A DNA stretch of 64,000 nucleotides from an uncultured Alphaproteobacteria bacterium (lineage in GTDB: Bacteria; Pseudomonadota; Alphaproteobacteria; CAAHEQ01; UBA3637): NCBI GenBank assembly GCA_944391565.1, contig CALXUB010000004.1, forward strand, positions 46,180 through 110,179, written 5' to 3'. The translations under genes and the position numbers were made by a program. Position 1 is the stretch's first letter. Each line of letters begins with the position of its first letter. The notes below the pieces were generated by a model. The model was not told where the DNA came from. It searched no databases and was given only the letters and a program-made list of their open reading frames with translations. Positions 489 through 58,643 of this stretch are shown piece by piece.

Positions 489-608
489 AAACACTGGAAA
501 AATAACGGTTTGTTAATTTTTATGATTTAATATCATTTTTCAGTAGACTTTTGTTCTAAGTTTGATTTATTTTAGTGTTAGGTGTTAATCAATCGAAAGA
601 GTTCGCAC

Positions 609-2258: not shown

Positions 2259-2287
2259 GTTAATGATTTAACAAATGTTGGGATACG

Positions 2288-9655: not shown

Positions 9656-9666
9656 AGGAGGGTGCT

Positions 9667-10656: not shown

Positions 10657-10675
10657 CTTTTAAAGGGATTAAAAA

Positions 10676-10706
10676 AGGCACATCTTCAAGATGTGCCTTT
10701 CTTTTT
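10676..10706. terminator. Bidirectional rho-independent terminator between convergent virB11 and minus-strand operon
   Basis: The hairpin GGCACATCTTCAAGATGTGCC is followed by TTTCTTTTT, with an A-run on the other side. Confidence 0.7.
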
Positions 10707-11286
10707 AACGTGCGCCGGTCGGCGGAATGTTAATTTGAGCAATCCAGCCCGGTCGAATGATGCTGGTCGCGTATTCAATGTTGCCTAACTCAATTGTATA
10801 GCTGGCCACACCGGTCATCCGAGAAGCTTCTTGGTAAAAATCGCGGGCTTCTCTATCCCGACGTGAAGGATTTTGTAAATAAAGCACACAGCCTTGTGTT
10901 CTTTCGGCAATACCACAGCGTTGTCTGTTCGCGGGTACTTCAGGATTTAAAACAACACCCGTTAAACCTTGTGTTCGTGTTTTGCCGCTGTCTCCGGACA
11001 TACTGCATCCCAGCATCATACCGAACAGTAAAACAATGACAAGAATAGCAGCCATTATTTTGGTCTGCAAAAAACTAGGAGGCAGTCCAAGTTGAGCAGC
11101 AAAGTTGTCATCATAAAGCCCTTTATCAGGAGAAACCGCTGCCGGCTGGGATAATGTTTTTTCATAAGCCGGAATGGACGGAGCCGCCGTTTTTGTCCCG
11201 TTCGGCGAGGGAGCTGCTGTCGGCGCTGCCATTCCTTTGGACGGAATATTGGGCGCTTTAAAGACAGGTTTTGGTGCTTCAGTCAT
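10705..11286 (-). CDS. Hypothetical bitopic membrane protein (Pro/Ala-rich cytoplasmic N-term, one TM, ~100-aa periplasmic domain); last gene of minus-strand T4SS-associated operon
   Basis: An AAGGAG RBS and an ATG lie 1 nt after the upstream stop (MTEAPKPVFK...). It has a single hydrophobic segment, IMAAILVIVLLFGMMLGC. I recognise no family. Confidence 0.5.
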   Translation of the reverse strand: MTEAPKPVFKAPNIPSKGMAAPTAAPSPNGTKTAAPSIPAYEKTLSQPAAVSPDKGLYDDNFAAQLGLPPSFLQTKIMAAILVIVLLFGMMLGCSMSGDSGKTRTQGLTGVVLNPEVPANRQRCGIAERTQGCVLYLQNPSRRDREARDFYQEASRMTGVASYTIELGNIEYATSIIRPGWIAQINIPPTGAR

Positions 11287-11287
11287 T

Positions 11288-44842: not shown

Positions 44843-44872
44843 TTGACAAAAAAATTTTTTTTCTGATATAAT
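44843..44872 (+). promoter_or_regulatory. Near-consensus sigma70 promoter
   Basis: TTGACA at 44843-48, an 18-bp spacer and TATAAT at 44867-72 lie ~40 bp upstream of the ATG at 44911. Confidence 0.65.
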
Positions 44873-44910: not shown

Positions 44911-46377
44911 ATGAATAACTCAGAAAAATGGACTTATCAGGCTTATAAAAAAGTCATGGAAGGTGAAGATGGATTTCAAAAGTTTTTGGCTTTAAAAGAT
45001 ATTTATTCTAAGCCGGAACTGTATGGGGATGTTGTTTTGGGGGCCATCGAAGCAAATGATACCTCTTTACTTGTTTCTTTTTTGAGCAATCAAATGATTG
45101 AAACAATTTATCAAACAACCCCCTCGCCGAAAGCCAGTTTTCTCAGTGAGATCTTGGCACAGGGGAAATTAAACATATTTCGGGATATTTTCAGCTTTAA
45201 AAGTTTTTATCCGCAAGAAATTGCTCAGTTAAAAGTATTGGATAAAGCCTTGCAAAATTCAAAGGAAAAGAGAAAATATTTCTATAAGTATTTCGAGGAT
45301 TTCTATTGGGCTGAAAGTCAAATTCACAAAGCGATCAAAGGATTGACCAATTATTCCGTTAAGATACAGACTCCCAAGCTTCTTCGCGTTTCGGAAACAG
45401 GGACCTATCCGCCGGTTGTTTTCGCATCTACCGCATCTCAGACTTATCGGTTTGAAGGCCTGGATCCGGCTTGTGTTCGTGAAAAAGGTGCCTCTGGTGT
45501 TTTGTTTGAGGCGTTTGAACGGATGGAACCCGATTTATCTTATTTAATTGACAAGGATGAAGTATTGAGTGCCGGGCGGTTGGAAACACTCAAGCGTGAA
45601 GTCAGAGAAATGGAAATTGATGATTTTTACAACACGTTTGAGGAGGATATTCCCAAGCTGGAACAGTTAATGGATTTAACGGAAAATTTCTTGCAAAAAC
45701 CGGAAGGCGTTTTGCTGCGGCATTTTATGGATAAAGGGGGCTTTTTTGTGCTTTCTCAGGATGAGGGGCAGGGGGTGCGCGGGATGAGCGCAGGGGGTGT
45801 CTTAATGATGAAAAATGTTCAGGAAAGTACTTTTTATCATGAACTCATCCATGAAATTGAAAAAGAAAAGAAACAAATTTCCGCTTCACCATTGATGAAT
45901 AAAGTTTACGATTATGTTGATTTTAACTCGGAAACACAGAAAGAGGGACCTTTTTCAAACTTTTGGAATGAAATGCTCTGTTTCAAAAAATACTATAATA
46001 GAATGGATAAAAACAAACGCTCGTTTCAATCCGAGATAGTGCCTTTTATGGCATCGCTTTTAAAAGAAAATGTCGAAATGCCTCAGTTGGCTAAGACTTT
46101 GTTGAAATATGTGACCTGTTATGCGAAAGCATGCGTCGAAAAAAATGTTGAGCGTCAAGCCTATTTGGAAAAAGCTCTCGAACGCACGGACATTGATATA
46201 ACCAAATCAGGTGACAAGATGACTTGTTATTTGGAGGACGTCATGAAAAATACCGTGCGTTCTCAGAATGCTTACCGTAATCATTCGCCTGAGAATGATT
46301 TTTCCGATGCTTTGAGAAAACTTCGTCGGGAAAAGTCGTTATTTGAGATTTTGTTTGAAAAGGAACGGAGCCGTTAA
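44911..46377 (+). CDS. Hypothetical protein with HExxH zinc-metallopeptidase-like motif (488 aa)
   Basis: The FYHELIHEIEKEK motif contains HELIH (HExxH). The protein is charged, Lys/Glu-rich and cytoplasmic-looking. I recognise no family. Confidence 0.4.
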   Translation: MNNSEKWTYQAYKKVMEGEDGFQKFLALKDIYSKPELYGDVVLGAIEANDTSLLVSFLSNQMIETIYQTTPSPKASFLSEILAQGKLNIFRDIFSFKSFYPQEIAQLKVLDKALQNSKEKRKYFYKYFEDFYWAESQIHKAIKGLTNYSVKIQTPKLLRVSETGTYPPVVFASTASQTYRFEGLDPACVREKGASGVLFEAFERMEPDLSYLIDKDEVLSAGRLETLKREVREMEIDDFYNTFEEDIPKLEQLMDLTENFLQKPEGVLLRHFMDKGGFFVLSQDEGQGVRGMSAGGVLMMKNVQESTFYHELIHEIEKEKKQISASPLMNKVYDYVDFNSETQKEGPFSNFWNEMLCFKKYYNRMDKNKRSFQSEIVPFMASLLKENVEMPQLAKTLLKYVTCYAKACVEKNVERQAYLEKALERTDIDITKSGDKMTCYLEDVMKNTVRSQNAYRNHSPENDFSDALRKLRREKSLFEILFEKERSR

Positions 46378-47435
46378 GATCGGCTCTGCCCTTCCCGTAA
46401 AAGAGCTGGCAGGGGGTCTTCTGGCTGGCCGTTTAAAAATACATCTATCCGTTTTTGGGCGTTGGCTTCAATATTGCGGTAGAAAATAGAAACATCTCCT
46501 GTATGATAAACATGGGTTCCCAAGTATTCATTTTCATACAGTTCGGGGGTAGGCGGGTTGACAATCAACGCTCCGTTTTCGGGATTTAATACAGCGCCGA
46601 TTAAATGCGGTTTTTCTTCTTTGATATTGCCGTTCTGGTCGAAATAAGCCGTTCCCAGATTTAACTCGGCTTCGGCCGGCGTTGCATCCGTTTTCCAATT
46701 CAAAGGATTGATACCCGGTGTTCCCGGCAAAGCAAACAAATCGTCGATCGCATCGGCGGCCTGCGTGTTCCAAGTGATGATAACTCCCGTGTCTGTTTCA
46801 CCTTTGGCAAATTTGAGCCACGGATATTTTTGTAAGTCACCGTTCATACCGGGACCTCCGATTAAATAAGCCGCTACCATTTTTTTTGCAAAAGGCTGAT
46901 CGAATTTTTCCTTCATCAGATTAAACAAAGCCATGGCACCTTGACTATGACCGAACAAGATAAAAGGACGACCTTGATTTAAATAATCCAGGTAGTATTG
47001 AAAAGCATCCTCCACATCGTCAAATCCGACTTTCATCGGCCCGGGAGCGTTCCCGGCCCGAAGTGCTGTTAAGGCAGTGTTTAGTTCCGTTTGTCGATAA
47101 AAAGGCGCATAAATGTTGGCAAAGTCTTTCATCGTACCGGTATTCATTTTGATGTTCAACAAAGCGGCCAGTCGTTGATCTTCCTGAGTGTGCCAATTCA
47201 TATAAGGACGGTTTTCATCGACGTATATTGTCGGATAAACATAAAAAACATCGACTTTTTTATCTGGTTTCGGTGGAAGCTGAGCCCAGTTGTCCGGCTC
47301 GGCATAATTGATTTTTTGAATTTGTAAAATAGCAGGTGTAGGAAGCGATGCAGTCGGTTGCTGAGCAGCCATGACAGCAGGAGCCAACATTAAAAAAAAC
47401 AAAAGAAGTAATTTTTTCATACGCATTCCTTTCAT
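46374..47435 (-). CDS. Secreted alpha/beta-hydrolase (lipase/esterase-like, GHSQG nucleophile elbow)
   Basis: It has a signal peptide (MKKLLLLFFLMLAPAVMAAQQ). The FILFGHSQGAMALFNLM motif is a GxSxG nucleophile elbow. Confidence 0.6.
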   Translation of the reverse strand: MKGMRMKKLLLLFFLMLAPAVMAAQQPTASLPTPAILQIQKINYAEPDNWAQLPPKPDKKVDVFYVYPTIYVDENRPYMNWHTQEDQRLAALLNIKMNTGTMKDFANIYAPFYRQTELNTALTALRAGNAPGPMKVGFDDVEDAFQYYLDYLNQGRPFILFGHSQGAMALFNLMKEKFDQPFAKKMVAAYLIGGPGMNGDLQKYPWLKFAKGETDTGVIITWNTQAADAIDDLFALPGTPGINPLNWKTDATPAEAELNLGTAYFDQNGNIKEEKPHLIGAVLNPENGALIVNPPTPELYENEYLGTHVYHTGDVSIFYRNIEANAQKRIDVFLNGQPEDPLPALLREGQSRS

Positions 47436-47520: not shown

Positions 47521-49422
47521 TCACCGGCACAAAGCTCTTAGGTTTGTGTAATAAAACGATTTATGTCCGACGCGTCCGCTGTCTAAGAACACATAATTTT
47601 TCGCACAAGTGTTGGAGGAAGTTGTATCCGTCCATGCCATTATACTGTCGGAGGTTGTTCCGGTTAAATGAGCACAAGCATTATCCACGCCTTCTTCGCC
47701 ATTCCAGTTCGGGCAAGCTTCGGACATGGTCACTAATCGCATGCCTTTGCTTTCACAAAAGTTTTTAGCACTCCAATAATACATGTAATCATTCTCCGAA
47801 AGCAGGTACTGGCTTCCATCGGCAGCCGTTATGAAAGTTCCTTCGGCTTTCTGACATGTGCCGGTTCCCTCGACTGTCGCGTGACAATAGGAACTCCCCG
47901 GATAGCTGGTATATTGACAATAATAACCTGACTCATCATGACAATCACTTTGAGAGGTACAGGACATATCTTTCAATGGCAAACATTGTTCGTTTTCTTC
48001 ATCCTGCCAATATCCTTCGTCGCAGATAAAGTTCACTCCGTCACACGTCGCATGTGCAGGACAAGGTGTGCAAAATTCACCGGACAAATATTCATCATTT
48101 TGACAGGCATAGCGGCCGTCGTCTAAACAAAGGGCTTGTAAATTGCTGTAAAAATAGGGTTTGTGACCAACTCTGCCACTATCCAAATAAACGTAATATT
48201 TGGCGCAGTCATTAGCGTTTGAGCTTGTCCAACCCATGACGGCTGATGAATAAGCATTCGTCAGGTTCTGACATGCTCCGTCAACGCCTTCCGTTCCTGA
48301 CCAATTCGGACAAGCCTCTTCAATACGAGCCAAAGCCAGTCCTTTGCTCGCGCAGAAATTTTTGGCAGACCAATAGAACATATAGCTGGATTGAGAGAGT
48401 AAATAACGTTGTCCGTTTTTACCAATGACAATCACTCCATTATTTTTTTTACAAATGCCATCTCCTTCTACTTCTTCATTACAATAAGTCGCACCGGGAG
48501 CATAATTTTGCATTTCACAATAAGTATCTGCTTCGCTGCAATCATTTTGTGCAGAACAATAATTTTTATCGACGCAGCCATCTTGTGCGGAGTTTATTTT
48601 GTATCCTTCTAAACAGGTGAAAGTCATCCCATTGCAAGAAGCATGTTCTGGACAAGGAGTACATATGTTATTCTGTAAATATTGTTCGTTTGAACAAATG
48701 CATAATCCATTTGAACAAATGCCAATTTCGTTTTCTTCACGAATGCACGGCTCTCCATCGGATAAGGCAACACAAACAGCACATCCCTTTGAATCTATTT
48801 TTATTTTTTCACATGGTGTGCAAAGTAAATCGATGCTTTGATTATCGCAAATGGTGCATATTCCATTAGAACAGTATCCTTCTTCACCATGTTCTGTGAA
48901 ACAAGCTGTCGCCGAAGGATTAGGAATACATTGCCCATTGCTGCAAGTTTCACAAGAAGTGCACTCTTCGCTGCATTCTTCCGATGGAATTTCATCATTG
49001 TTGAAAGAAAAAATAAAATGAAGAGTACTTTCTGTTGGACAATTTGTTTCATCGGGTTGATTGTTAATAAAAATTTCTTGGATAGGAGTATGTTTATTAT
49101 TTAATAAACGCTGACATATTCTTTTATCAATTTGTTCAACTTGAACATCAAATCCGTCTTCTAAAATTAGAGTTATAATATTTTTCCCAGATTCTGGAAG
49201 ATAAAGAGGCTTTATAATATCTCCTTGATTTAATCCTTCTCGAGTGACAAGACGTTCAGCCTGTATCATTACATCATTTAAAATTTGATTAGATTCGTGC
49301 CAAGTTAAGGCCATTCTAATGCCTGCAATACTTCCTAAGCTAAGGAGAGCTGCAATCAACAAAACAGACAACAATTCAATCATTGAGCGTCCATAATTTT
49401 GGATATCAGAAAGTCTTTTCAT
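47521..49422 (-). CDS. Type IV pilin/pseudopilin-like protein with large Cys-rich extracellular region containing two EGF-like + C-type-lectin-like repeats (633 aa)
   Basis: The N-terminus is a class III (prepilin) signal, MKRLSDIQNYG|RSMIELLSVLLIAALLSLGSIAGI, with Glu at +5. There are ~60 Cys. Two ~200-aa internal repeats each contain CTPCP[EA]HA[ST]C[ND]G..F.C.EGY and YYWSAKNFC[AE]SKG[LM].L......ACPNW.G.EGVD.AC...W.GL-like lectin elements and SGRVGHK.[FY]YY[ST]NL[QR]ALC. Confidence 0.55.
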   Translation of the reverse strand: MKRLSDIQNYGRSMIELLSVLLIAALLSLGSIAGIRMALTWHESNQILNDVMIQAERLVTREGLNQGDIIKPLYLPESGKNIITLILEDGFDVQVEQIDKRICQRLLNNKHTPIQEIFINNQPDETNCPTESTLHFIFSFNNDEIPSEECSEECTSCETCSNGQCIPNPSATACFTEHGEEGYCSNGICTICDNQSIDLLCTPCEKIKIDSKGCAVCVALSDGEPCIREENEIGICSNGLCICSNEQYLQNNICTPCPEHASCNGMTFTCLEGYKINSAQDGCVDKNYCSAQNDCSEADTYCEMQNYAPGATYCNEEVEGDGICKKNNGVIVIGKNGQRYLLSQSSYMFYWSAKNFCASKGLALARIEEACPNWSGTEGVDGACQNLTNAYSSAVMGWTSSNANDCAKYYVYLDSGRVGHKPYFYSNLQALCLDDGRYACQNDEYLSGEFCTPCPAHATCDGVNFICDEGYWQDEENEQCLPLKDMSCTSQSDCHDESGYYCQYTSYPGSSYCHATVEGTGTCQKAEGTFITAADGSQYLLSENDYMYYWSAKNFCESKGMRLVTMSEACPNWNGEEGVDNACAHLTGTTSDSIMAWTDTTSSNTCAKNYVFLDSGRVGHKSFYYTNLRALCR

Positions 49423-49605
49423 AAATACCTCCTTTTAAAAGATAAAGGAGATTAGAGTTTTGTCAATAAAGTTCATTAAGAGAAGCTATTTTAAAAAAAA
49501 TGTATCATTTAAACATTCAAGTTTGAGTTGATATATTTTATTTGTTTTTTATTAAAATGCATGCTAAAATATACACCTATTTATTTTAAAGAAAGGAATT
49601 AAAAA

Positions 49606-49737
49606 ATGAAAAAATTAGCTTTAACAGCTTGTGGTGGTAGTCGTGGGTATGTTGGAAATCAAAAAGTTTGTGAGAATGATTATTTTCTAGGAGTTATTTC
49701 AATTTCTGAATTATTCTCTCCTTGCACAAAAAAGTAA
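49606..49737 (+). CDS. Small predicted lipopeptide (43 aa)
   Basis: It has an AAAGGA RBS. It encodes MKKLALTACGGSRGYVGNQKVCENDYFLGVISISELFSPCTKK with lipobox LTAC. A hairpin terminator follows. It is below the ORF-track size cutoff. Confidence 0.35.
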   Translation: MKKLALTACGGSRGYVGNQKVCENDYFLGVISISELFSPCTKK

Positions 49738-49750
49738 ATTTGAATAATAC

Positions 49751-49788
49751 GAAAAGACCTTTGCTAAAGTGCAAAGGTCTTTTTTTAT
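49751..49788 (+). terminator. Rho-independent terminator
   Basis: The hairpin AAAGACCTTTGCtaaagtGCAAAGGTCTTT is followed by TTTTTTT. Confidence 0.7.
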
Positions 49789-49913: not shown

Positions 49914-49966
49914 TGGTGGGCGTAAGAGGACTCGAACCTCTGACCTTTACGATGTCAACGTAAACA
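49914..49966 (-). tRNA. 3' fragment (~53 nt: anticodon arm to CCA) of tRNA-Val(GAC); likely prophage att-site remnant, not an intact gene
   Basis: The minus-strand reading is TTTACG-TTGACAT-CGTAAA (anticodon loop with U33 and GAC) / AGGTC / AGAGG-TTCGAGT-CCTCT (T arm) / TACGCCC-A-CCA. No matching 5' acceptor or D arm lies upstream. An integrase gene lies ~550 bp away. Confidence 0.6.
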
Positions 49967-50103
49967 GTATAATGAAAATAATTTTTATTTTCAACGTGTT
50001 ATTTTTTTAAAAAATAAAATTGCCCAATTTTTGCCCAATTAAAAAATAAATTTACTTTTTCTTATAAAAAATTATAATATCGTTCTCAAAAGAAGGAGAC
50101 TTT

Positions 50104-50499
50104 ATGAAGTATTGTTTTTTATTATTATTCTTGTTTCTGATCGGTTGCTTTAATGGAGAATCTCTTGAGGAAATTAATAAAGCATCTTCTAAAATAGTTT
50201 TAAATGAGAAATGTGAAAATGTTTCTGCTTTTGAAGTTTTTCAAGTCCTTGATAAATTTGTATTAGCCCATACTTGTGATAGCAATGATTATAAATTTTG
50301 TTCGGGGTTAGTTGTTTACATTATGAAAGAGAAAAATAAAATTTATTATAATGATCAAATTATTCATGTTCCTGACGGTAAATGTCCCGAATATTATGAC
50401 ACGTTTACATATGAAAGTTCTTTAGGGTCAAGAACTGTTCCGAAAGTGAAATGGTCACATAAAGAGATTCATAATTCCGCCAAGAAACAAGAGAAGTGA
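50104..50499 (+). CDS. Small lipoprotein (131 aa), AT-rich, likely prophage cargo
   Basis: The lipobox is LFLIGCFNG. The gene has low GC content and lies between attL and int. Confidence 0.45.
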   Translation: MKYCFLLLFLFLIGCFNGESLEEINKASSKIVLNEKCENVSAFEVFQVLDKFVLAHTCDSNDYKFCSGLVVYIMKEKNKIYYNDQIIHVPDGKCPEYYDTFTYESSLGSRTVPKVKWSHKEIHNSAKKQEK

Positions 50500-50501
50500 A
50501 A

Positions 50502-51602
50502 TCAGATTTTATTAAGTGCAGTTGCTTCATGGTGCTTCGAAAAGGTGGCATAGCGTTGAACCATTTTTATTGATTTCCAACCTCCTAATTTTTGAAGAGT
50601 TAAAAGGTCCATGCCGGACATAATACATCTAGATGCCCAGTCATGTCGCCAGTCGTGAATGCGCATTTTTTTCCCATTGCTGTTTCGAGGGATAAAACCG
50701 TGTCTTTGTTCAAAACGTTTTAATGCTAATGTGTGTGCTTTATGAAGTGGTGTCCCACCTCCTCTTATTCGAGTGTCGCAATATGGAACATTTTTGATTG
50801 TTAAAAAAACTTTTCCAGATTTCGGTTTGTTTGCTCTGATCCATGTTCTTGCTAAAATCCAAAAAGTTTTCCGGTGCATTGGAACGTTTCGTGTTTCTCC
50901 GTTCTTACTTTTTACAATATCAATTGTTCGGTTCGGAAAGTAAACATCAGCCCAATCTAGTTGGAGCAATTCTTGTTCACGAAAGCCTTGAACAGCGTAA
51001 ATTTCAAACATAGGCCGAGCGTGCGTAGAGTAACAATCTAATAAAAGAGTGCGAGTTTCATTATCTAGGTGAAAAACGACATTGTCATTTCCTCTTTTCC
51101 TCGGTAATTTTTGAAATTCAAATCCAAGATCATTTGCCGCACATCTGATTATTGCCATTATCGTGTCCCTATAACGATTTGTTGTTGTTGGTGCCAAGTG
51201 TTGTTTTTCCCTTAGAAAATCTCTCCAGGCTGTTTTAATGTCTGATATGCGTATGTTTGAAAAATAAGGACGTAATATCTCGATTTTATTAATTTCACCG
51301 GCTTTTAACTGGTTATTAATAAGATATATTTCTAAACATTGATCAAATGTTATATCTTGTGGGTGGGACGTATGTCCTGTTTTAATATTGGTCCTAATTT
51401 TTTCTTCTAACTCGTGAGCATATTCCGCTGCTTCTGCTTTTGTAGTAAATCCTGTACTTTGCTCCGGGACGTTAATTGACTGTGAACCAACTTTAATCGT
51501 TCCACGTACCGAGTAGATGCCTTTCTTTCCTCTTTGTCGGATATGTAACACTTTTCTTTTTCCTTTTGTAATGTTTCGAAAATTATTTCCTTGAAGTACC
51601 AC
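50502..51602 (-). CDS. int: Tyrosine-type site-specific integrase
   Basis: The C-terminal catalytic region HDWRHDWASRCIMSGMDLLTLQKLGGWKSIKMVQRYATFS contains the H-x-x-R and terminal Y of the RHRY family. It lies adjacent to the tRNA fragment. Confidence 0.85.
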   Translation of the reverse strand: MVLQGNNFRNITKGKRKVLHIRQRGKKGIYSVRGTIKVGSQSINVPEQSTGFTTKAEAAEYAHELEEKIRTNIKTGHTSHPQDITFDQCLEIYLINNQLKAGEINKIEILRPYFSNIRISDIKTAWRDFLREKQHLAPTTTNRYRDTIMAIIRCAANDLGFEFQKLPRKRGNDNVVFHLDNETRTLLLDCYSTHARPMFEIYAVQGFREQELLQLDWADVYFPNRTIDIVKSKNGETRNVPMHRKTFWILARTWIRANKPKSGKVFLTIKNVPYCDTRIRGGGTPLHKAHTLALKRFEQRHGFIPRNSNGKKMRIHDWRHDWASRCIMSGMDLLTLQKLGGWKSIKMVQRYATFSKHHEATALNKI

Positions 51603-51736
51603 CCGCGACGCATGGGCTTTATCCCTCGTTTATTAAGCCAATTTCTTGTATTTCGAATGGGATTTAATGTCGTATCGTATTTGAGTAAAAAGGCTATCTC
51701 ATTTAAGGATATGGATTGGACTTCTTCAAATTTCAT
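51407..51736 (-). CDS. Possible excisionase/AlpA-like small DNA-binding protein (overlaps int 5' end in another frame)
   Basis: The sequence MKFEEVQSISLNEIAFLLKYDTTLNPIRNTRNWLNKRGIKP has a helix-turn-helix flavour. It overlaps the int start by ~195 nt, so either this ORF or the integrase N-terminus is overcalled. Confidence 0.25.
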   Translation of the reverse strand: MKFEEVQSISLNEIAFLLKYDTTLNPIRNTRNWLNKRGIKPMRRGWYFKEIIFETLQKEKEKCYISDKEERKASTRYVERLKLVHSQLTSRSKVQDLLQKQKQRNMLTS

Positions 51737-52062
51737 TCTTCCTCCTTTACTAGGCATATTTCTTCGATCTCTTCATCTTCAATTTCTGTATCTCCTCGAA
51801 AATCTTCTTCCCAATCCTTATCCGCCTTGTAAGCCTTTTTCTCCGCCTCATCTTCAGAAAAAGCCATAATTTCTAATTCGCATTTAACGGAAACGGATTG
51901 TATTGCATTCATTTTCACCAGATATTTCTTAGGTTTTCCTTCTCGTCTGAAGTTTTCATCGACATGTTTTCGAACAAAATCGGTAAACTTACCATATCCG
52001 GCATCTTTGAAATCATTCAAATCAATTTTTAGGCCATTTTTCGTTGTAATTATCATCTCCAA
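51733..52062 (-). CDS. Acidic hypothetical phage protein (109 aa)
   Basis: It is an ORF of E/D-rich composition lying in the early left operon. Confidence 0.35.
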   Translation of the reverse strand: MEMIITTKNGLKIDLNDFKDAGYGKFTDFVRKHVDENFRREGKPKKYLVKMNAIQSVSVKCELEIMAFSEDEAEKKAYKADKDWEEDFRGDTEIEDEEIEEICLVKEEE

Positions 52063-52283
52063 TCCCCAATTTTGTTAGGAAGGGACAGGTTTTGAGTTTT
52101 TTGTCTTTTCCCGCCGCCTTCCGATGCTTTATTGCACTTTCCCTTCTAAAAAGGCAAAAGCAGACTCTTTCGCCGCAAGAGGAAGGGATTTGTCATTTAT
52201 AACTTTTAAAGCTTCGATAATGCTTTGGGAGTTTGGACATCCGTTGATTTTGACGATTATCAAACTTTCTTTTAAAATATCAG

Positions 52284-52529
52284 TCATTTTCCCTCCGGTT
52301 CAAATTTATTAAAGACGTATTTTGTTTCAATTTTAACGGATTTACCGCATTTGCAATGAAATCCCCATCCGCCTTCTACTTTTGTGGTGATGCCATTTTT
52401 TACGTATGAGACGTCTAATTGATAAAAAAGATCTTTAGTCGACACTCGGTTAGCTCGTCCACAGTATGGGCATAGGCCGTCAAAATTAACGGAAAGCCAT
52501 AACTTTTCCTGAAGCGATAAATTATTCAT
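52284..52529 (-). CDS. Zinc-ribbon protein (81 aa)
   Basis: The CPYCGR ... CKCGKS pair forms a C4 zinc ribbon. Confidence 0.4.
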   Translation of the reverse strand: MNNLSLQEKLWLSVNFDGLCPYCGRANRVSTKDLFYQLDVSYVKNGITTKVEGGWGFHCKCGKSVKIETKYVFNKFEPEGK

Positions 52530-52532
52530 GAT

Positions 52533-52793
52533 TTATACCCTTTCACCATAAAACCATTCTTCCCAAGCTTCAACGATTTCAGGGAAAGCTATTTTCAAGC
52601 GGTGGCGATTGTTTGAATCGGCTTTGCCGATCAGGTCAATGAGTTTACACATAAAAGAGGTGCTTTCTCCTCTTTGCCATTCTTTTATCTGTTCCCGTGC
52701 TTCTTCTTTTGTCATAATGTCTCCTTGTTTCTCTCTTTTTCTTTTAAACTCGCTGGTATTCTTTGACCGATTGAAACATGATCCAACTGGCAA
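52533..52793 (-). CDS. Hypothetical phage protein (86 aa)
   Basis: It is an ORF adjacent to the zinc-ribbon gene in the same operon. Confidence 0.35.
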   Translation of the reverse strand: MPVGSCFNRSKNTSEFKRKREKQGDIMTKEEAREQIKEWQRGESTSFMCKLIDLIGKADSNNRHRLKIAFPEIVEAWEEWFYGERV

Positions 52794-53056
52794 CGGCCTT
52801 TACTCTGTGAGAGAATACCTTTCGTGTGCGAGCAACACGGTTTACTTTTGAAAAAGATAGCCAGTGGAAAGCTAATTCATCGCAACCCTTCGCCATACCG
52901 GCCGGTTTTATATTCCCAAGCATCAACGCGGGATTGGCCTTTTTCGCACGCAACTAAAAGCAACATGACGCTTAACAAAACAATGAAAATGTAAATTGCG
53001 GTGTCTTTGATCATTATTGTTTTTCCTTTTCAAAAGTTTTTTAATCACAAAAGAAT

Positions 53057-53073
53057 TATACGATAATCGTATA
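53057..53073. promoter_or_regulatory. 17-bp palindromic operator TATACGATAATCGTATA (copy 1)
   Basis: This is a perfect inverted repeat. A second copy lies 36 bp downstream and a third lies in the cI/cro intergenic region. Confidence 0.6.
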
Positions 53074-53092
53074 AAATAAGTCAATAGAAAAA

Positions 53093-53109
53093 TATACAAT
53101 AATCGTATA
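53093..53109. promoter_or_regulatory. Operator copy 2, TATACAATAATCGTATA (1 mismatch)
   Basis: It shows the same palindrome family. It is followed by the same AAAATxA flank as copy 1. Confidence 0.55.
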
Positions 53110-53289
53110 AAATGACTAAAAAGGCTCAAAAGCGTATCTTTTTCGAAACAGAATTGCGGAAAGAAGTGGGGGCGAAAAATAACTTTTCGAACTTAAAAAA
53201 ACGAATCGGAGTTAAAAAAATATGAAAAAAAGGATTGACAATACCGCAATAATGACATACAATTTAAATATACAGAAAGGAAAACGAGA

Positions 53290-53487
53290 ATGCCGATACG
53301 ATATACTTTTGAAGATTTGAGAAAAATGATTGAAAAAGACGGGTGGTTCTTAGTGCGGGTTAAAGGAAGTCATATGCAGTTTAAGCATGCATCGAAAGTT
53401 GGGATTGTGACAATCCCTGCTCATCGGGGGATTGTTCCGCCAGGCACAGCAAACAGTATATTGAGGCAGGCAGGTTTGAAAAAATAG
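53290..53487 (+). CDS. hicA: HicA mRNA interferase toxin
   Basis: It is a 65-aa protein. The KGSHMQFKH motif carries the HicA catalytic His. An RBS AAAGGAAA is present. Confidence 0.85.
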   Translation: MPIRYTFEDLRKMIEKDGWFLVRVKGSHMQFKHASKVGIVTIPAHRGIVPPGTANSILRQAGLKK

Positions 53488-53496
53488 GAGGTTGCT

Positions 53497-53925
53497 ATGT
53501 TAAAATACATTGCTTTATTTGAAACGGATAAGGAAACGGGGCAGGTTGGTGTTGTTTTTCCCGACGTGCCGGGATGTTTTTCCGGCGGTTCGAACTTTGA
53601 TGATGCTTTGCGGAATGCACATGAGGCGTTGGCTTTGCATTTGGATGCATTGGCTGATGAAGGGCAAGCTCTTCCGGTTCCTCGGAGTTTGGAGGATATC
53701 AAAAAAGAGTGGGATGAATGGTCAGATTGGCAAAATTATGATTTTCTCGTCTCGCCGGTCAGCTATATTAAGTTTCGTAAGCCTAAAAAGTATACGCTTT
53801 ATTTGGACAGCGATTTGGTCGCAGTTGTCGATTCTGTTTCCAAAAATCGGTCGGCTTTTTTTAACGAAGCGGCAAGAACGGTGTTAGGGCAGAATGTATC
53901 AAAAACGAGATCGCACACACTATAA
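53497..53925 (+). CDS. hicB: HicB antitoxin (RNase H-like N-domain + RHH-like C-term)
   Basis: It starts MLKYIALFETDKETGQVGVVFPDVPGCFSGGSNFDDALRNAHEALALHL. It has an AGGAGG RBS. It lies immediately downstream of hicA. Confidence 0.8.
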   Translation: MLKYIALFETDKETGQVGVVFPDVPGCFSGGSNFDDALRNAHEALALHLDALADEGQALPVPRSLEDIKKEWDEWSDWQNYDFLVSPVSYIKFRKPKKYTLYLDSDLVAVVDSVSKNRSAFFNEAARTVLGQNVSKTRSHTL

Positions 53926-53933
53926 TCCCAACT

Positions 53934-54569
53934 TTATGTCTTGCTTTTGGGCTTTTTCTTACGCGATGTTTTAACGGCCCGAACGTCTGACGTTCCAAAG
54001 GCATCATAACCTGTGAGAGCGTTCACAAAATCCGGCAACTCAATCAGCTCACCATTGTTGTCATATATGTCTTCAATATTTGTGCTGAGAAATGTTCGGC
54101 TGGCATGGCGCAAAAGGCAGGTTCCTTGAAAGTAGAAACGTGTTTTGCCGTCCTTATAAATTTTGTGGAGAATAACGCTTCTTTCTGTATAAACGCCGGC
54201 CGCATTTCGGTAGTTAAAATTGATTGGCAATCCTTCGGCTGATTCCCAGACAATTACGCCGAAGTCTGGAAGGTCAAAATCATCATCTTCTTCCGGTTGC
54301 TGTTTTAGTTGGGGCGTTGGCTTTGGGGTGAACGGTTCTGCTATTTGGTTGCCTTTTATAATAACCTTAACGAGACTAATAATTAAGCCGATAAACAAGG
54401 AAAGCATGAGATAGGAAAGAAGTGCCATTTTAAGATTTTCTTTAAATCCAGCGGAAGAGGAGATAAGAGAAATGATAAAACCCAGGATGCATGGAAATGA
54501 AGCTCCAATAGCTCCTTGTTTTATGCTTTTTGTCATTATCTGCAACGTGATTTCTTGTTCTTTTTTCAT
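53934..54569 (-). CDS. Membrane-anchored protein with WYL-like C-terminal domain (211 aa)
   Basis: Two N-terminal TM helices are followed by INFNYRNAAGVYTERSVILHKIYKDGKTRFYFQGTCLLRHASRTFLSTNIEDI. This fits the WYL-domain pattern (Y.d..G..t.R.v.P..l....g..Y..g.C..r...R.F....I). Confidence 0.4.
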   Translation of the reverse strand: MKKEQEITLQIMTKSIKQGAIGASFPCILGFIISLISSSAGFKENLKMALLSYLMLSLFIGLIISLVKVIIKGNQIAEPFTPKPTPQLKQQPEEDDDFDLPDFGVIVWESAEGLPINFNYRNAAGVYTERSVILHKIYKDGKTRFYFQGTCLLRHASRTFLSTNIEDIYDNNGELIELPDFVNALTGYDAFGTSDVRAVKTSRKKKPKSKT

Positions 54570-54664
54570 GTTTTCTCCTCTTAGATGTATGTTCTTGGTT
54601 TACAATAAAATGTGTGTAAAAGCAATTGGTTAGTCTAAAAATTCGTAATTAATTTTGATAAAAA

Positions 54665-55000
54665 TCAAGTTTTTTTTCGAAAATAAAGAAGCATACGTTC
54701 GTTGGGAAGTTCTTTTGGTGTTTTTAAAAAATACATAATGTGTTTGTATTTAAACCGTGTTATTCCTTTCGTCGAGCTGAAATTCCAGTGCTTCCTCAAA
54801 TATCCATCGATTTTTTGTTCGGTGACGTGAAGTTCTGCGGCTTTTAGAGATATTTCAGACCGTAAAGATTGATATTCATAATAAGTAATGGGGGTCAGAA
54901 AGTAAAGAATAACAGCCAGGCACAGCATAAAAAACACAAAAACAAGATGATAAAAAAAGGTGTTTTTTTTAAAGAAAAAGAAACGGGCGTATTTTTGCAA
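54665..55000 (-). CDS. Small membrane protein (111 aa)
   Basis: It has a hydrophobic N-terminal helix (FYHLVFVFFMLCLAVILYFL). It lies between the WYL-like gene and the repressor. Confidence 0.35.
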   Translation of the reverse strand: MQKYARFFFFKKNTFFYHLVFVFFMLCLAVILYFLTPITYYEYQSLRSEISLKAAELHVTEQKIDGYLRKHWNFSSTKGITRFKYKHIMYFLKTPKELPNERMLLYFRKKT

Positions 55001-55133
55001 TCCGAGAGATTGACGACAAAACAGGACTCGGATTTTGTAAATTGCACCGGTTGCGGTGGCGTTTCATGCGATTTTATGTCTGGAAGATCATTTACAATTT
55101 TTGCGAATTTTTCTTTATCGATCATTAAACTTC

Positions 55134-55607
55134 TCACTGGTTGACTACAGAATGGCGATATGCAAAATCGGCGATATTATAGACTTTTGCTTTTTTCTCC
55201 GCTGCCGGCGTATCTTTGACGTCATCATATATCATGTAGGCAAGCTCTAATCCTAACTGTGCCGGTAATACTTTATGGCGATCCGCTGCCCAATTGGTCA
55301 ACATCTCAATCAGTTCAAATAATTCATCCTTAGGGATATTGTTATTATTGCTGGATGCGTTGTGAGTTGTCGCATTCCAAAGTTCTTCTTCAGATATTCT
55401 TCCAGAAACAAAATCGAGAAAAGCCAATGTATCGAAATTCAAGAAAGATGCTGCTTTTCGCACATGTTCAATTTTTAAGTTCCAGCAACCTTTCTCTAAA
55501 TCTGATAAACGTGGCTGTCGAACGCCAAGCGCAGCGGCTAATTGCGTTTGCGTTTTTCCAAGCTCTTTTAAACGGCGTTTCAGCCAAAAAACTTTTGTCT
55601 CATTCAT
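55134..55607 (-). CDS. cI-like phage repressor (HTH_XRE N-term)
   Basis: The sequence LKRRLKELGKTQTQLAAALGVRQPRLSDLEKG is an XRE-type HTH. It is divergent from the cro-like gene and the operator palindrome lies in the intergenic region. Confidence 0.75.
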   Translation of the reverse strand: MNETKVFWLKRRLKELGKTQTQLAAALGVRQPRLSDLEKGCWNLKIEHVRKAASFLNFDTLAFLDFVSGRISEEELWNATTHNASSNNNNIPKDELFELIEMLTNWAADRHKVLPAQLGLELAYMIYDDVKDTPAAEKKAKVYNIADFAYRHSVVNQ

Positions 55608-55690
55608 AAATTAAATATATCCGAAAATCGAATATAGCACAAGGGGAAAAAAATATTATACGGTTTATGTAAAAAATATATTGACTCATT

Positions 55691-55707
55691 TATACGATTA
55701 TCGTATA
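55691..55707. promoter_or_regulatory. Operator copy 3 TATACGATTATCGTATA overlapping a TTGACT-17bp-TATAGAT promoter for the cro-like gene
   Basis: TTGACT at 55681-86 and TATAGAT at 55704-10 flank the palindrome. The palindrome sits between them. Confidence 0.6.
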
Positions 55708-55730
55708 GATTGGGAAGGTGGGAGGTTGTA

Positions 55731-55940
55731 ATGTCAATCAATTTTAACAAAATTAAGGAAAAAACAAGCTTTCGGAGGTTCGCATCTGAAATGGGTGTGC
55801 CTTATACGACTTTTTTCACATGGTTAAAGAATAAAAAGGTGCCTGTTTGGAGAATCCATCAATTGGAATGTGCGGCCAAACGATTGAATATTGATTTGTC
55901 CGGTTGTCATGAGGTTTCTTGTGAGGATAGAAAAGGTTGA
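55731..55940 (+). CDS. Cro/YdaS-like small HTH protein
   Basis: It has a GGGAGG RBS. The sequence SFRRFASEMGVPYTTFFTWLKNKKVP has an HTH flavour. It lies in the position of lambda cro. Confidence 0.55.
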   Translation: MSINFNKIKEKTSFRRFASEMGVPYTTFFTWLKNKKVPVWRIHQLECAAKRLNIDLSGCHEVSCEDRKG

Positions 55941-56040
55941 TCAAAGTGCTTTTTTTAATTTTATGTGTGTTCAGTTTCTGCCTTTTTTGCGTATTCGTGC
56001 GCGAAATGGCTGAAGCCTTTTTAAACATTGAGGAGGAAGA

Positions 56041-56214
56041 ATGAAAATAAAAGACAAACTACAAACGGCGGCGGCTCGTTTAATAAAAACGGATGTATTG
56101 ATGGCTGAATTATCAAATAGGGACGGGATTTCCTATCGTTGCATCGATAAACAAAACTATCGCATGCGGGTGGCAGGTCCGGCTCAAATTTTAATCAGAA
56201 AGGGAGAAAAATGA
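56041..56214 (+). CDS. Small phage protein (57 aa), sub-threshold ORF
   Basis: It has a strong GAGGAGGAAGA RBS. Its stop overlaps the next gene's start in ATGA, which indicates translational coupling. Confidence 0.4.
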   Translation: MKIKDKLQTAAARLIKTDVLMAELSNRDGISYRCIDKQNYRMRVAGPAQILIRKGEK

Positions 56215-56456
56215 CGCAAATCGATCAAACTGAATCAACTCGTTTGAACTCTTATTTTGACCGAATTGAGCGGTTGGAAGAAGAAGTAAAAGGCATTCGA
56301 GCCGATATTCGGGAAATTTATGCCGAAGCCAAAGGTGATGGATTCGATCCGAAAGTTATGCGACAAGTATTGCGCTTGCGCAAAATGACCCCGGCAGATC
56401 GGGCAGAAGCAGAGTTTTTGTTGGATGCTTACAAATCAGCACTGGGGATGGAATGA
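56211..56456 (+). CDS. DUF2312 (UPF0335) family protein
   Basis: The sequence TESTRLNSYFDRIERLEEEVKGIRADIREIYAEAKGDGFDPKVMRQVLRLRKM is characteristic of this alphaproteobacterial phage-associated family. Confidence 0.7.
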   Translation: MTQIDQTESTRLNSYFDRIERLEEEVKGIRADIREIYAEAKGDGFDPKVMRQVLRLRKMTPADRAEAEFLLDAYKSALGME

Positions 56457-56839
56457 GACTGTTTTTTAAATTTCCGGGTATTCCCGTTCCAAAAGGCAGA
56501 CCGAGGCTGATTGCACCGGGAGTTGTTTATACGCCGGCCAAAACAAAAAGTTATGAAAAATTGATCGGGACGTTGGCACATGTTGGAATGGGTGCAAAAA
56601 AAACTTTGGAAGGTCCGCTTTATGTCGAATTGACGGCCTTTTTGCCGCAGCCAAAACATGCCAAATGCTCTTTGCCCGTTGGAAAACCTGATATCGACAA
56701 TTTATTGAAAAGTGCGTTGGATGGTTTGAATCGAATTGTTTGGCGAGATGACAGTCAAATCTGTCAATTATCGCTGCAAAAACAATATGCCGCGAACCCG
56801 CGGTTGGAGATAAAAGTAGAGGAAATTACATGTATTTAA
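56453..56839 (+). CDS. rusA: RusA-family Holliday junction resolvase
   Basis: The sequence PVPKGRPR...GKPDIDNLLKSALDGLNRIVWRDDSQICQL matches the RusA catalytic core. Its start overlaps the upstream stop in ATGA. Confidence 0.75.
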   Translation: MRLFFKFPGIPVPKGRPRLIAPGVVYTPAKTKSYEKLIGTLAHVGMGAKKTLEGPLYVELTAFLPQPKHAKCSLPVGKPDIDNLLKSALDGLNRIVWRDDSQICQLSLQKQYAANPRLEIKVEEITCI

Positions 56840-56982
56840 AGAAAGAAGATCCGGATACGTATTACTTTTACCGCTACGTTGCTTGGTTGGAACGAGAAAT
56901 TCGTAAACAAGGCCATCGATGGAAAGAAAAGAAACGCCATTTGCGGTGGCTTTTGAATGCGCGCCAAAAAGGGCGTGTTTGA
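56830..56982 (+). CDS. Small basic phage ORF (50 aa), sub-threshold
   Basis: It encodes MYLKKEDPDTYYFYRYVAWLEREIRKQGHRWKEKKRHLRWLLNARQKGRV. It overlaps the end of rusA. Confidence 0.25.
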   Translation: MYLKKEDPDTYYFYRYVAWLEREIRKQGHRWKEKKRHLRWLLNARQKGRV

Positions 56983-57068
56983 CCCGTGGTCGGGAACCGT
57001 GCAGGAAACGGTTAAATAATATGGCGGGATATTCCTGTATGCCCGCCACCTAACAGGAAAGGTTAAAC

Positions 57069-57794
57069 GTGAGAGACAGTTTTATTTTTTATAAAAGTTT
57101 TGCTGAGGCCGCGCAGCTTTTAGGGGACAAAGCGCGTTTAAAACTTTATGACGCAGTTGTAGAGTTGGCTCTAAGTTGTCCCAAAGATGAAGCGGAGTTA
57201 AACCAACTTTGTGCCGAAATTGAAACAAGATTGAAACAATATCGGAACGTTTTTGCGCAATTTTTATTAATTAAGCCTCAAATTATATCTAACCTTTTTA
57301 AATACTTTAACGGTTGCAAAGGGGCAGATTTCGGACATCTCGGGGCTTCATACGGAAGACTTGGCGGACGTCCGAGGAAAAATAACGAAAACCCCCCTAA
57401 TGAAAATGTAAATGTAAATGTAAAAAAAGAAGAAATTCCCAAAGAAAAAAAATCAATAATACAAAATCCGAATTTAGCTAATTCCGAACAGGAAAAGGAA
57501 ATTTTATGTCAAAGGGCGGTCGCGTGGTGGAATACTGTCGCTGAATTTTACGGACTTCCAGGCATCGAAGAAATAACACCGCCTCGTTTTTCAAAGTTGT
57601 CGGCACGGATTAAGCAAGCCGGAACGTTGAAATCTTTCGAAAGGATTGTTGAAAATGCTTTGGCCGGATCGACATTTTTGACAGGCCGACAAGAAAAATC
57701 AACGTGGCGCGCGGATTTTGATTTTTTCCTGCAAGAAAACAGTTTTCAAAAGGCGCGTGAAGGAAGCTATACAGATGTGAAGGAGGCCAGCTAA
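57069..57794 (+). CDS. Hypothetical phage early protein (241 aa)
   Basis: It is an ORF with an RBS (GGAAAGG) and a GTG start. It contains a basic GRLGGRPRKN segment. I cannot assign it. Confidence 0.4.
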   Translation: MRDSFIFYKSFAEAAQLLGDKARLKLYDAVVELALSCPKDEAELNQLCAEIETRLKQYRNVFAQFLLIKPQIISNLFKYFNGCKGADFGHLGASYGRLGGRPRKNNENPPNENVNVNVKKEEIPKEKKSIIQNPNLANSEQEKEILCQRAVAWWNTVAEFYGLPGIEEITPPRFSKLSARIKQAGTLKSFERIVENALAGSTFLTGRQEKSTWRADFDFFLQENSFQKAREGSYTDVKEAS

Positions 57795-58276
57795 TGGGTG
57801 TTGATGATTTGTTTGAAGCACGAAAAGAACGGCAGCGTATTGCGCTTGATTTTCTGTTTAACCGTATCAAAAAAACATATAAAACCTTTGAAATTCCGGA
57901 AGAAGACGAACTGGATGAATGGCTTATCGCTTGTCAAGGGATGAGCCAAGATGAGCTTTTGACGCAATTCAAGCTATACAAAGCCAGTTTCCCATATGAT
58001 GCTCCGCCGACAGCAAAGGTCTTTTTTGAAGCTTCTTCTGCCGGAAAAACAACAATAAATGCATGTTCCAAAGCGATATCGCCCGAAAACGAACTTTATG
58101 AGCTTTTGAAAACGCGCCGCTTTGTCGTTTACGGGGACGTAAAATGGGCATTCCGGCAAATGGTTTCGGATTTTATCGGAATTTACGCTGAACTTCGGAA
58201 TAGTGATTTTGCCACAATTTGCCAAAACATGCGAACAAATGGCTGGTGGGATAAAAAATTGGAAAGATATTTGTAG
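57794..58276 (+). CDS. Hypothetical phage protein (160 aa)
   Basis: It is an ORF coupled to the upstream gene. Confidence 0.4.
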   Translation: MGVDDLFEARKERQRIALDFLFNRIKKTYKTFEIPEEDELDEWLIACQGMSQDELLTQFKLYKASFPYDAPPTAKVFFEASSAGKTTINACSKAISPENELYELLKTRRFVVYGDVKWAFRQMVSDFIGIYAELRNSDFATICQNMRTNGWWDKKLERYL

Positions 58277-58283
58277 CGCGACG

Positions 58284-58643
58284 ATGGGGAAACACAGAAA
58301 GCATAAGACGCATTTACCTGATCGGTTTCCGTTTAAAACGGCGGAAGAAAATGTAATTGCCGGCGTTATTATGCAGGCATGGTGTGATGCTTTTATGCGG
58401 TGTTCCGAACAATCTTATGTCGGCTTTCACGAGAAAAAAGAGCAGAAAACAGCTCGTCAAATGTTTGAGGGTCGTGGAGAGTGGCGGCGGTCTTTGAAGG
58501 ATTTATGCGCGGCCATTCAGATTCAAGATACGGATTTGGTGAAAGCGTATGTTGAATACAAAAAAATGCGTTTGAAAGGTGCTACGAAAATAAGTCCGGC
58601 AAAAGCTGGTATTGCTTTTTTAAAACGATTGAAGGAGGAGTAA
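58284..58643 (+). CDS. Hypothetical phage protein (~119 aa)
   Basis: It is an ORF. I chose the ATG at 58284 to avoid overlap with the previous gene. Confidence 0.35.
   Translation: MGKHRKHKTHLPDRFPFKTAEENVIAGVIMQAWCDAFMRCSEQSYVGFHEKKEQKTARQMFEGRGEWRRSLKDLCAAIQIQDTDLVKAYVEYKKMRLKGATKISPAKAGIAFLKRLKEE

Follow-up and report, generated by a model that had tools for sequence, protein, structure and literature searches.

The gene and its N-terminal signal

The window analysed here is a stretch of 64,000 nucleotides of DNA from an uncultured Alphaproteobacteria bacterium (contig CALXUB010000004.1), and the subject of this work is a gene on its minus strand at 47521..49422, the product of which (the window protein) we read as a probable modular type IV pilin. 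The gene is a real open reading frame (ORF), opened by ATG and uninterrupted over 633 aa. A Shine-Dalgarno sequence, AAGGAGG (49428..49434, minus strand), was read off the sequence 5 nt ahead of the ATG, and a promoter-like TTGACA-16-TATCTT lies at 49439..49466 on the same strand, with 10 of the 12 positions agreeing with the consensus, a match that by itself is no proof of function.

The window protein begins with MKRLSDIQNYG|RSMIELLSVLLIAALLSLGSIAGI, where the bar marks the predicted prepilin peptidase cleavage site. The leader peptide (aa 1-11; 49390..49422, minus strand) is basic and ends with Gly at -1; after it come Glu at +5 and a stretch of some 20 hydrophobic residues. When the predicted mature N-terminus is written as RSMIE(+5)LLSVLLIAALLSLGSIAGI, it has the layout of a type IV pilin signal. 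The class III-type signal with Glu at +5 that the initial annotation had described is therefore present in the sequence, and it stands in register with those of solved pilins. A search of the six-frame translation of the whole window with the motif G[RKQ][ST][MFL][IVL]E[MLI][LI] gave one match, precisely at this N-terminus.

Domain layout, cysteines and duplication

The predicted pilin module (aa 12-145; 48988..49389, minus strand) consists of the alpha-1 helix (model residues 10-60, with Glu+5 being E16) and a four-stranded sheet, and contains a conserved Cys103/Cys128 pair. It is joined to a Cys-rich stalk (aa 146-242; 48697..48987, minus strand), in which 17 Cys are arranged in two sub-repeats of about 45 aa (C..C..C.NG.C...C....G.C.NG.C.C); every Cys of the stalk is invariant among the orthologues, and the stalk has no match in Pfam. 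The remainder is formed by repeat 1 (aa 243-437; 48112..48696) and repeat 2 (aa 438-633; 47524..48111), both on the minus strand and each composed of a CxxCP-type Cys-rich segment, a disulfide-rich beta-stalk and a core that resembles a C-type-lectin-like domain (CTLD). The two CTLD-like cores comprise aa 331-437 (48112-48432, minus strand) and aa 529-633 (47524-47838, minus strand), and the protein stops one residue past its final Cys.

The two repeats, of about 196 aa each, are 50% identical over 194 aa (E 3e-72), which confirms the duplicated modules of about 200 aa proposed earlier. Their core of about 105 aa contains the invariant string YWSAKNFC.S.G..L....EACP.W...EG...AC...M.WT....N.CAK.YV.L.SG.VGHK..YY.NL.ALC, the first part of which, YWSAKNFC.S.G..L....EACP.W, is kept in both repeats of all four orthologues; the W.A..FC..G..L......AC core noticed before is thus real. 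The window protein contains 50 Cys in total, C103 and C128 in the N-terminal domain and 48 between residues 150 and 632. The Cys-rich extension therefore measures about 490 residues and not 580, as had been stated, but it is indeed rich in Cys. A modular pilin is defined as an N-terminal pilin module fused to at least one module that is not restricted to pilus biology (PMC8179133), and the arrangement found here, of a pilin module at aa 12-145, a stalk and two CTLD-like modules, agrees with this definition of Raynaud et al. (2021).

Searches with curated profiles

The window protein was compared with Pfam (E<=1) and NCBIfam, and no meaningful match was obtained. Neither PF00059 (Lectin_C) nor PF07963 (N_methyl) matched it at E<=1. 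The initial annotation had staked its reading on support from these two profiles, and on that formal count it failed. At the same threshold no EGF (epidermal growth factor) or related Pfam profile matched, so the EGF-like identity once suggested for the Cys spacing is not upheld; weak and sporadic matches to Cys-rich Pfam families (Dickkopf_N, EB and EGF_2) were seen in other members of the pilin family described below. The Shufflon_N and PilV profiles likewise gave no match to the window protein, and a sequence search of the PDB with the window protein alone returned noise. The missing profile matches reflect the insensitivity of the profiles, and more sensitive tests gave a different result: PF07963 touches 77 of 102 members of the pilin family below its threshold, and therefore we take the missing N_methyl match to be a matter of sensitivity.

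The N-terminal region belongs to a large family of predicted type IV pilins

A database search identified four full-length homologues of the window protein, with 100, 87, 55 and 54% identity, and two longer proteins that resemble it only over the first ~130 residues. A profile of the N-terminal region matched at least 7,613 proteins at E<=1e-3, mostly of 120-270 aa, of which none among the matches listed carries a Pfam annotation; the named entries read "hypothetical protein [Alphaproteobacteria bacterium]". After a short basic leader the family has an essentially invariant consensus, G-R-S-M-[IV]-E-M-L-G-V-L-A-I-I-G-V-L-S, and its G-R-S-M-[IV]-E motif is without variation, in the same register relative to the leader as the G|FTLIE of solved pilins. 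Arg at +1 is the hallmark of this family, which we call the GRSM-type pilin family.

When the family profile was compared with PDB sequences, type IV pilins made up six of its seven best matches (geopilin, PilA, TcpA and FimA among them). Each of these matches was non-significant (E 0.24-3.8), yet all were in register, with G|RSMVE aligned to G|FTLIE. The sub-threshold N_methyl matches in the 77 family members reached E 0.0018 at best, PilS_N was matched in 4 members, and one pilin encoded in a pilus operon (see below) scored 16 bits with N_methyl, against a cut-off of 21.2 bits. A comparison by hhalign of the family profile, in which the window protein was the first row, with an operon-encoded pilin of locus L081 gave a probability of 99.7% and E 5.6e-27 over 122 columns.

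Residues 1-145 were modelled with AlphaFold2 from a 102-sequence alignment. In the model (predicted local distance difference test, pLDDT, 89.9), an N-terminal helix of 50 residues packs against a sheet of four strands, the arrangement of long helix and antiparallel sheet that characterises the pilin fold. In one fold comparison the best match, from the type IVb pilus of enterotoxigenic Escherichia coli (ETEC), was followed among the pilins by TcpA (7.6), Clostridioides difficile PilA1 (7.3), Salmonella Typhi PilS (5.4), CofB (5.2) and TcpB (4.6). The top Foldseek match was to the same ETEC pilus, with a probability of 0.99. From the sequence comparisons and the model, we concluded that the first 145 residues are a predicted type IV pilin module.

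The C-terminal repeats are predicted to have a CTLD fold

An AlphaFold2 model of the beta-stalk and core, built from a 7-sequence alignment, had a pLDDT of 82 and a predicted template modelling score (pTM) of 0.81. When this model was used in a fold search, all 60 of the 60 matches listed were members of the C-type-lectin-like superfamily, including Ly49, PLA2R, CD72, the Link modules of LYVE-1 and TSG-6, selectins and collectins; the bacterial matches were invasin, intimin and the Bdellovibrio fibre tip Bd2740. The modelled repeat core has the beta1-alpha1-alpha2-beta sheet of a CTLD together with the disulfide from alpha1 to the last strand.

At the sequence level the evidence is weaker. The best PDB sequence match of the module was the CTLD 1wk1, with E 0.32. 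A hidden Markov model (HMM) of the module, used in an exhaustive search of 1.84 billion representatives, found 132 relatives at E<=1e-3, many of which are secreted single-module proteins of 125-135 aa and one of which is DUF1566-like. It also matched P0192, a canonical eukaryote-type protein with four CTLDs, at E 1.8e-5, over the beta1-alpha1 segment only. Pfam gave only weak matches to the module relatives: Xlink (0.06), Lcl_C (0.0087) and DUF7495. Taken together, the C-type-lectin-like character of the repeats is supported at the level of the predicted fold and weakly at that of sequence. The C-type-lectin-like modules first annotated are upheld as a predicted fold, by the model and its 60 matches; the Lectin_C profile did not match them.

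The combination seen in the window protein recurs elsewhere: in at least 13 of the module relatives a GRSM-type pilin N-terminus is followed by a linker and then by one or two modules, as in P0140 (736 aa, two modules). Stretches of CTLD-like module, up to 13 of them, were also observed in the giant proteins P0128 (4,172 aa), P0130 (3,034 aa), P0132 (2,070 aa) and P0137 (6,919 aa); P0130 and P0132 were scanned with Pfam and had no match.

Relatives encode a type IVb pilus machine beside GRSM-type pilins

One genome per GTDB species was scanned with the pattern [VI]EMLG[VT]LA[IV], outside which the divergent helix of the window protein falls, and at least 511 of the 600 pattern matches were confirmed as family members. 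The best 80 loci came almost all from metagenome-assembled genomes (MAGs) of uncultured gut Alphaproteobacteria of ruminants, rabbits and humans. There are at least about 8-10 paralogues per MAG, and most of the family genes stand singly amid housekeeping genes. GRSM-type pilin genes were noted at loci L004-L086, five of them at L069 and four at L080, for example, and their products bear highly diverse C-terminal extensions, either Cys-rich or Thr-rich.

At locus L081, two GRSM-type pilins lie in an operon (770-11635 of that locus) with the gene order TcpQ-like protein, secretin, PAP_PilO, a 479-aa protein, T2SSE ATPase, T2SSF, a 207-aa protein, the two GRSMIE pilins and a PilT-like ATPase. 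Both pilins pass the Pfam thresholds, with 59 and 65 bits for PilS_N and 35 and 54 bits for Bundlin; in general, the pilins beside the assembly genes are of 175-198 aa and have a PilS/bundlin domain. The two conserved operon components of 479 and 207 aa belong to no Pfam family. A search of metagenome contigs with the operon ATPase found 80 further loci (L091-L170), mostly from the human gut and with 64-89% identity, across which the operon is collinear (TcpQ in 56, secretin in 61, PilO in 63, T2SSF in 77 and PilT in 80), and in 45 of the 80 there are 1-3 GRSM-type pilins about 1.9 kb downstream of the ATPase. Because some of these loci lie on contigs of 400-570 kb, the operon is chromosomal in the relatives.

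A Peptidase_A24 gene (54.7 bits) was found amid housekeeping genes in the family-bearing MAG L052, a homologue of this peptidase lies 2.5 kb past PilT in L166, and L066 has a lone PilT-like gene. We considered a Tad/Flp origin for the L052 peptidase; its neighbours are housekeeping genes and do not settle its type. The family is homologous to pilins encoded with a pilus machine, as seen from the hhalign comparison with the L081 pilin and from the linkage in 45 of 80 loci. From the operon linkage and the presence of PilT and prepilin peptidase genes in relatives, we concluded that the GRSM-type family supplies the pilins of a type IVb pilus of the R64/Bfp/TCP kind.

The housekeeping proteins of the window share 70-76% identity with their counterparts in the L001 organism, which has an orthologous pilin (55% identity) in the same DacC-BamD-RecN neighbourhood, and 50-58% with those in two family-carrying MAGs. 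When the machine proteins of L081 were compared by tblastn with the many unannotated ORFs of the window, only the VirB11 ATPase was found, as a weak match.

Selection and an allelic mosaic in the pilin gene

The ORF is unbroken in all four alleles or orthologues, the most distant of which is 54% identical, and all 50 Cys are invariant among the orthologues. Compared with the 55% orthologue, the CTLD-like cores are best conserved (65-71%), the stalk is at 45% and the globular part of the pilin module at 39%. The allele of one strain, at locus L089 (which encodes P0002), is a striking mosaic of the window allele. Within gene nt 291-1026 the two differ at 243 positions (33%); gene nt 1-290 and gene nt 1027-1902 show no difference, and the flank downstream of the gene has 99.8% identity. 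This allelic cassette (aa 97-342; 48397..49132, minus strand) extends from the D-region of the pilin through the stalk to the middle of repeat 1. Within it the nonsynonymous divergence (dN) is 0.24, the synonymous divergence (dS) is saturated, and no Cys is changed.

An origin of the cassette from a diversity-generating retroelement (DGR) or from a silent cassette was ruled out, since the pattern is not adenine-specific, synonymous change is saturated and there is no donor copy in the window. The swap of aa 97-342 is a recombinational import of an old, divergent allele and not DGR-type mutagenesis. The intact ORFs, the invariant Cys, the dN of 0.24 beside saturated dS and the conservation of the CTLD-like cores indicate that an expressed and folded extracytoplasmic protein, with disulfide bonds, is under purifying selection.

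A modular minor pilin as the likely explanation

We consider it likely that the product is a type IVb-like minor pilin of modular build. It would be processed at Gly11, reside most probably at the pilus tip and act there as an adhesin, its two CTLD-fold heads carried on a rigid, disulfide-knotted stalk. The protein would first be inserted into the inner membrane, and a prepilin peptidase would then cut the 11-residue leader after Gly11, leaving a mature protein that begins with Arg and has Glu at +5. The pilin module, aa 12-145, would be polymerised by a type IVb pilus machine, which the source genome is expected to encode. Like CofB, TcpB and PilV, the subunit would most likely be a minor pilin of low abundance placed at the tip, where the two heads at the end of the Cys-knotted stalk might bind a glycan or a protein on the surface of a host or partner cell. 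By comparison with these pilins, the role of a tip adhesin is plausible.

Several observations weigh against this explanation. The curated profiles are silent on the window protein, and there is no pilus assembly gene or prepilin peptidase within the 64-kb window. The N-terminal part of its alpha-1 helix (RSMIELLSVLLIAALLS) diverges from the family motif, and we know of no characterised precedent for Arg at +1. Classical type IVb pilins have a leader of about 15-30 aa and a pilin domain of about 180-200 aa; the window protein has a short leader of 11 aa and a small pilin module of about 134 aa. It shares with type IVb pilins a residue other than Phe at +1, its best fold matches are type IVb pilins, and the machine of its relatives includes TcpQ and PAP_PilO. 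The EPN, QPD and WND motifs for Ca2+ and carbohydrate are absent, by inspection, from both repeats in all orthologues; consequently, Ca2+-dependent sugar binding is not implied, and the lectin activity proposed in the initial annotation finds no support. Finally, the tip location and adhesion are argued by analogy.

The hydrophobic stretch might instead be an ordinary signal anchor or signal peptide, in which case the product would be a membrane-anchored or Sec-secreted Cys-rich surface protein that forms no filament. Such a protein would agree with the failure of N_methyl and other pilin profiles to match, with the lack of pilus genes in the window and with the many CTLD-module relatives of about 125-135 aa that have ordinary signal peptides and no pilin part. 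We regard it as unlikely, however, because the homology to the operon-encoded PilS/bundlin pilins extends beyond the hydrophobic segment over all the N-terminal 145 aa, which are modelled as a pilin fold, and because at least 7,600 otherwise divergent proteins keep Gly-1, Glu+5 and the helix sequence unchanged, a signature of filament packing and peptidase recognition. Moreover, an inner-membrane anchor in a diderm would keep the heads in the periplasm.

There is an equally small chance that the gene is an orphan, left in a lineage which once had a type IVb pilus and from whose genome the machine has been lost, and that it is now repurposed or decaying. The machinery was indeed seen in relatives and not in the window, the nearest characterised gut lineages of such kind are described with strongly reduced genomes (PMC12306168), and the type IV secretion and prophage features of the window suit a host- or partner-associated organism. 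Against decay speak the intact ORF in four alleles or orthologues with all 50 Cys kept, the swapped cassette with its dN of 0.24 and saturated dS, and the 65-71% conservation of the CTLD-like cores. Against loss of the machine, the pilus genes of relatives are scattered, with PilT and the A24 peptidase standing alone amid housekeeping genes, and the absence of such genes from 64 kb therefore says little. Slightly less probable again is a major or shaft-decorating subunit, in which a flexible stalk would allow the heads of each incorporated copy to project sideways, as in a 'bottle-brush' pilus. The modular-pilin literature allows a location in the filament body if the linker is long enough (PMC8179133), and the Glu+5 for subunit packing is kept. 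Against this, the 175-198 aa PilS/bundlin pilins beside the assembly genes are the obvious major subunits, the window gene stands singly and encodes a pilin module of minimal size, and it would be difficult for a secretin to let through many copies of a subunit enlarged by 490 residues.

Beyond the modular minor pilin itself, a broader picture may be put forward tentatively, although we would lean against it as a whole. It is possible that one chromosomal type IVb machine serves a large, Pfam-invisible arsenal of pilins (at least 8-10 paralogues per MAG and at least 7,600 clusters) with an invariant G|RSMVEML helix and interchangeable Cys-rich heads, among them the new CTLD-like modules, which would act as swappable tips that set the surface bound. 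These tips might be diversified by cassette exchange, as at aa 97-342, in uncultured Alphaproteobacteria of the gut, the genomes of which may be small.

Comparison with known systems

The window protein would work like CofB and TcpB, the PilV of R64 and TP114, and the Streptococcus sanguinis PilB and PilC, and it is by sequence a member of none of these groups. CofB (of ETEC CFA/III) and TcpB (of the Vibrio cholerae pilus TCP; PMC5207764) are minor pilins of type IVb systems and have no detectable sequence similarity to it. In contrast to them, it has tandem CTLD-like C-terminal domains, a Cys-knotted stalk and 50 Cys, its leader is of 11 aa with Arg at +1, and its gene lies outside any pilus operon. 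PilV, the adhesin of the thin pilus of IncI plasmids such as R64 and TP114, likewise belongs to a PilS-type type IVb system, in which a constant pilin N-terminus is joined to alternative C-terminal binding parts that fix the target specificity (PMC9045228). The machine of the relatives is like that system in having a TcpQ/PilL-like protein, a secretin, PAP_PilO, an ATPase, T2SSF and a PilS-type pilin. It differs from the plasmid system in being chromosomal, and the diversity of the GRSM-type family comes from many separate paralogues and from allelic cassette exchange, not from a shufflon.

The modular pilins PilB (with a von Willebrand factor A, vWA, module) and PilC (with a concanavalin A-like, ConA-like, lectin module) of S. 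sanguinis are type IVa-like pilins of a monoderm, with a canonical IPR012902 motif and modules that databases recognise (PMC8179133). The pilin motif and the module of the window protein are both unrecognised by Pfam, and it and its family would therefore be missed by an InterPro-based census such as that in PMC8179133. CTLD-like tips are known from intimin (D3), invasin (D5), Bdellovibrio Bd2740 and the C-terminal domain of Legionella Lcl (DUF1566), where they are carried on autotransporter/Ig-repeat, phage-like fibre or collagen-like stalks and not on a pilin; the heads of the window protein have no significant sequence similarity to any of them. What is new compared with the known modular pilins is the CTLD-like cargo, its tandem duplication, the Cys-rich stalk and a pilin family missed by curated profiles. 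A paper on gut lineages of reduced genome, the alphaproteobacterial order Rs-D84 among them, reported type IV pili for another lineage and not for those Alphaproteobacteria (PMC12306168).

Modular type IV pilins are a recognised bacterial route for placing adhesins on retractile filaments. The window protein points to a very large and uncounted pilin family in mammalian-gut Alphaproteobacteria, to a dedicated type IVb machine of that family, widespread in human-gut metagenomes, and to a new family of compact CTLD-like modules that serve as pilus cargo. Should the heads bind glycans of the host or the surfaces of partner cells, they would determine the attachment of an uncultured gut lineage about which little is understood, and would offer a practical handle on what those bacteria attach to.

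Neighbouring genes and other features of the window

A secreted lipase-like hydrolase and an HExxH protein had been placed immediately upstream of the pilin gene and combined with it into a host-interaction module. The hydrolase gene (46374-47435, minus strand), which encodes a DUF3089 alpha/beta-hydrolase (Pfam E 2.8e-45) with a signal peptide and a GHSQG motif, shares the strand of the pilin gene and lies 85 bp downstream of it. The HExxH (HELIH) ORF (44911-46377, plus strand), encoding 488 aa without a match in Pfam or NCBIfam, is convergent with the DUF3089 gene, with a tail-to-tail overlap of 4 bp. The consensus promoter described for it is correct: a perfect 12/12 sigma-70 consensus with a TG extension, belonging to this ORF, was found at 44843-44872 on the plus strand. 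Because the DUF3089 and HExxH genes are both missing from the orthologous locus L001, which keeps the pilin gene beside DacC-BamD-RecN, a conserved functional module of the three is not supported.

On the other side of the pilin gene, between it and a prophage, there is an ORF for a 53-aa lipoprotein-like product (49606-49767, plus strand; MKKLALTACGG..., weak DUF4223 match), followed by a strong bidirectional hairpin at 49751-49784. The prophage or integrative element (about 49915-64000) abuts the pilin locus and starts at about 49963, exactly where the same-strain contigs L087 and L088 (99.6% identical) part from the window. A 3'-end fragment of a tRNA lies at about 49915-49960, and ARAGORN found no intact tRNA. 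The element carries genes for a tyrosine integrase (50502-51602), a DNA methylase (59380-60774) and a terminase gpA (61582-63486).

At the opposite end of the window, a type IV secretion cluster occupies 15-10656 (plus strand) and 16225-18747 (minus strand), with genes for VirB8, VirB9/CagX, VirB10/TrbI and VirB11. The VirB10-like protein, of 2,455 aa, contains about 14 beta-flower repeats together with DUF3659 and RHS-like segments. Near this cluster there is a VirB6/TrbL-like protein of 840 aa, and several adjoining ORFs of 200-600 aa have no Pfam match. Beyond the left edge of the window lies a 7.4-kb contig with further type IV secretion genes.

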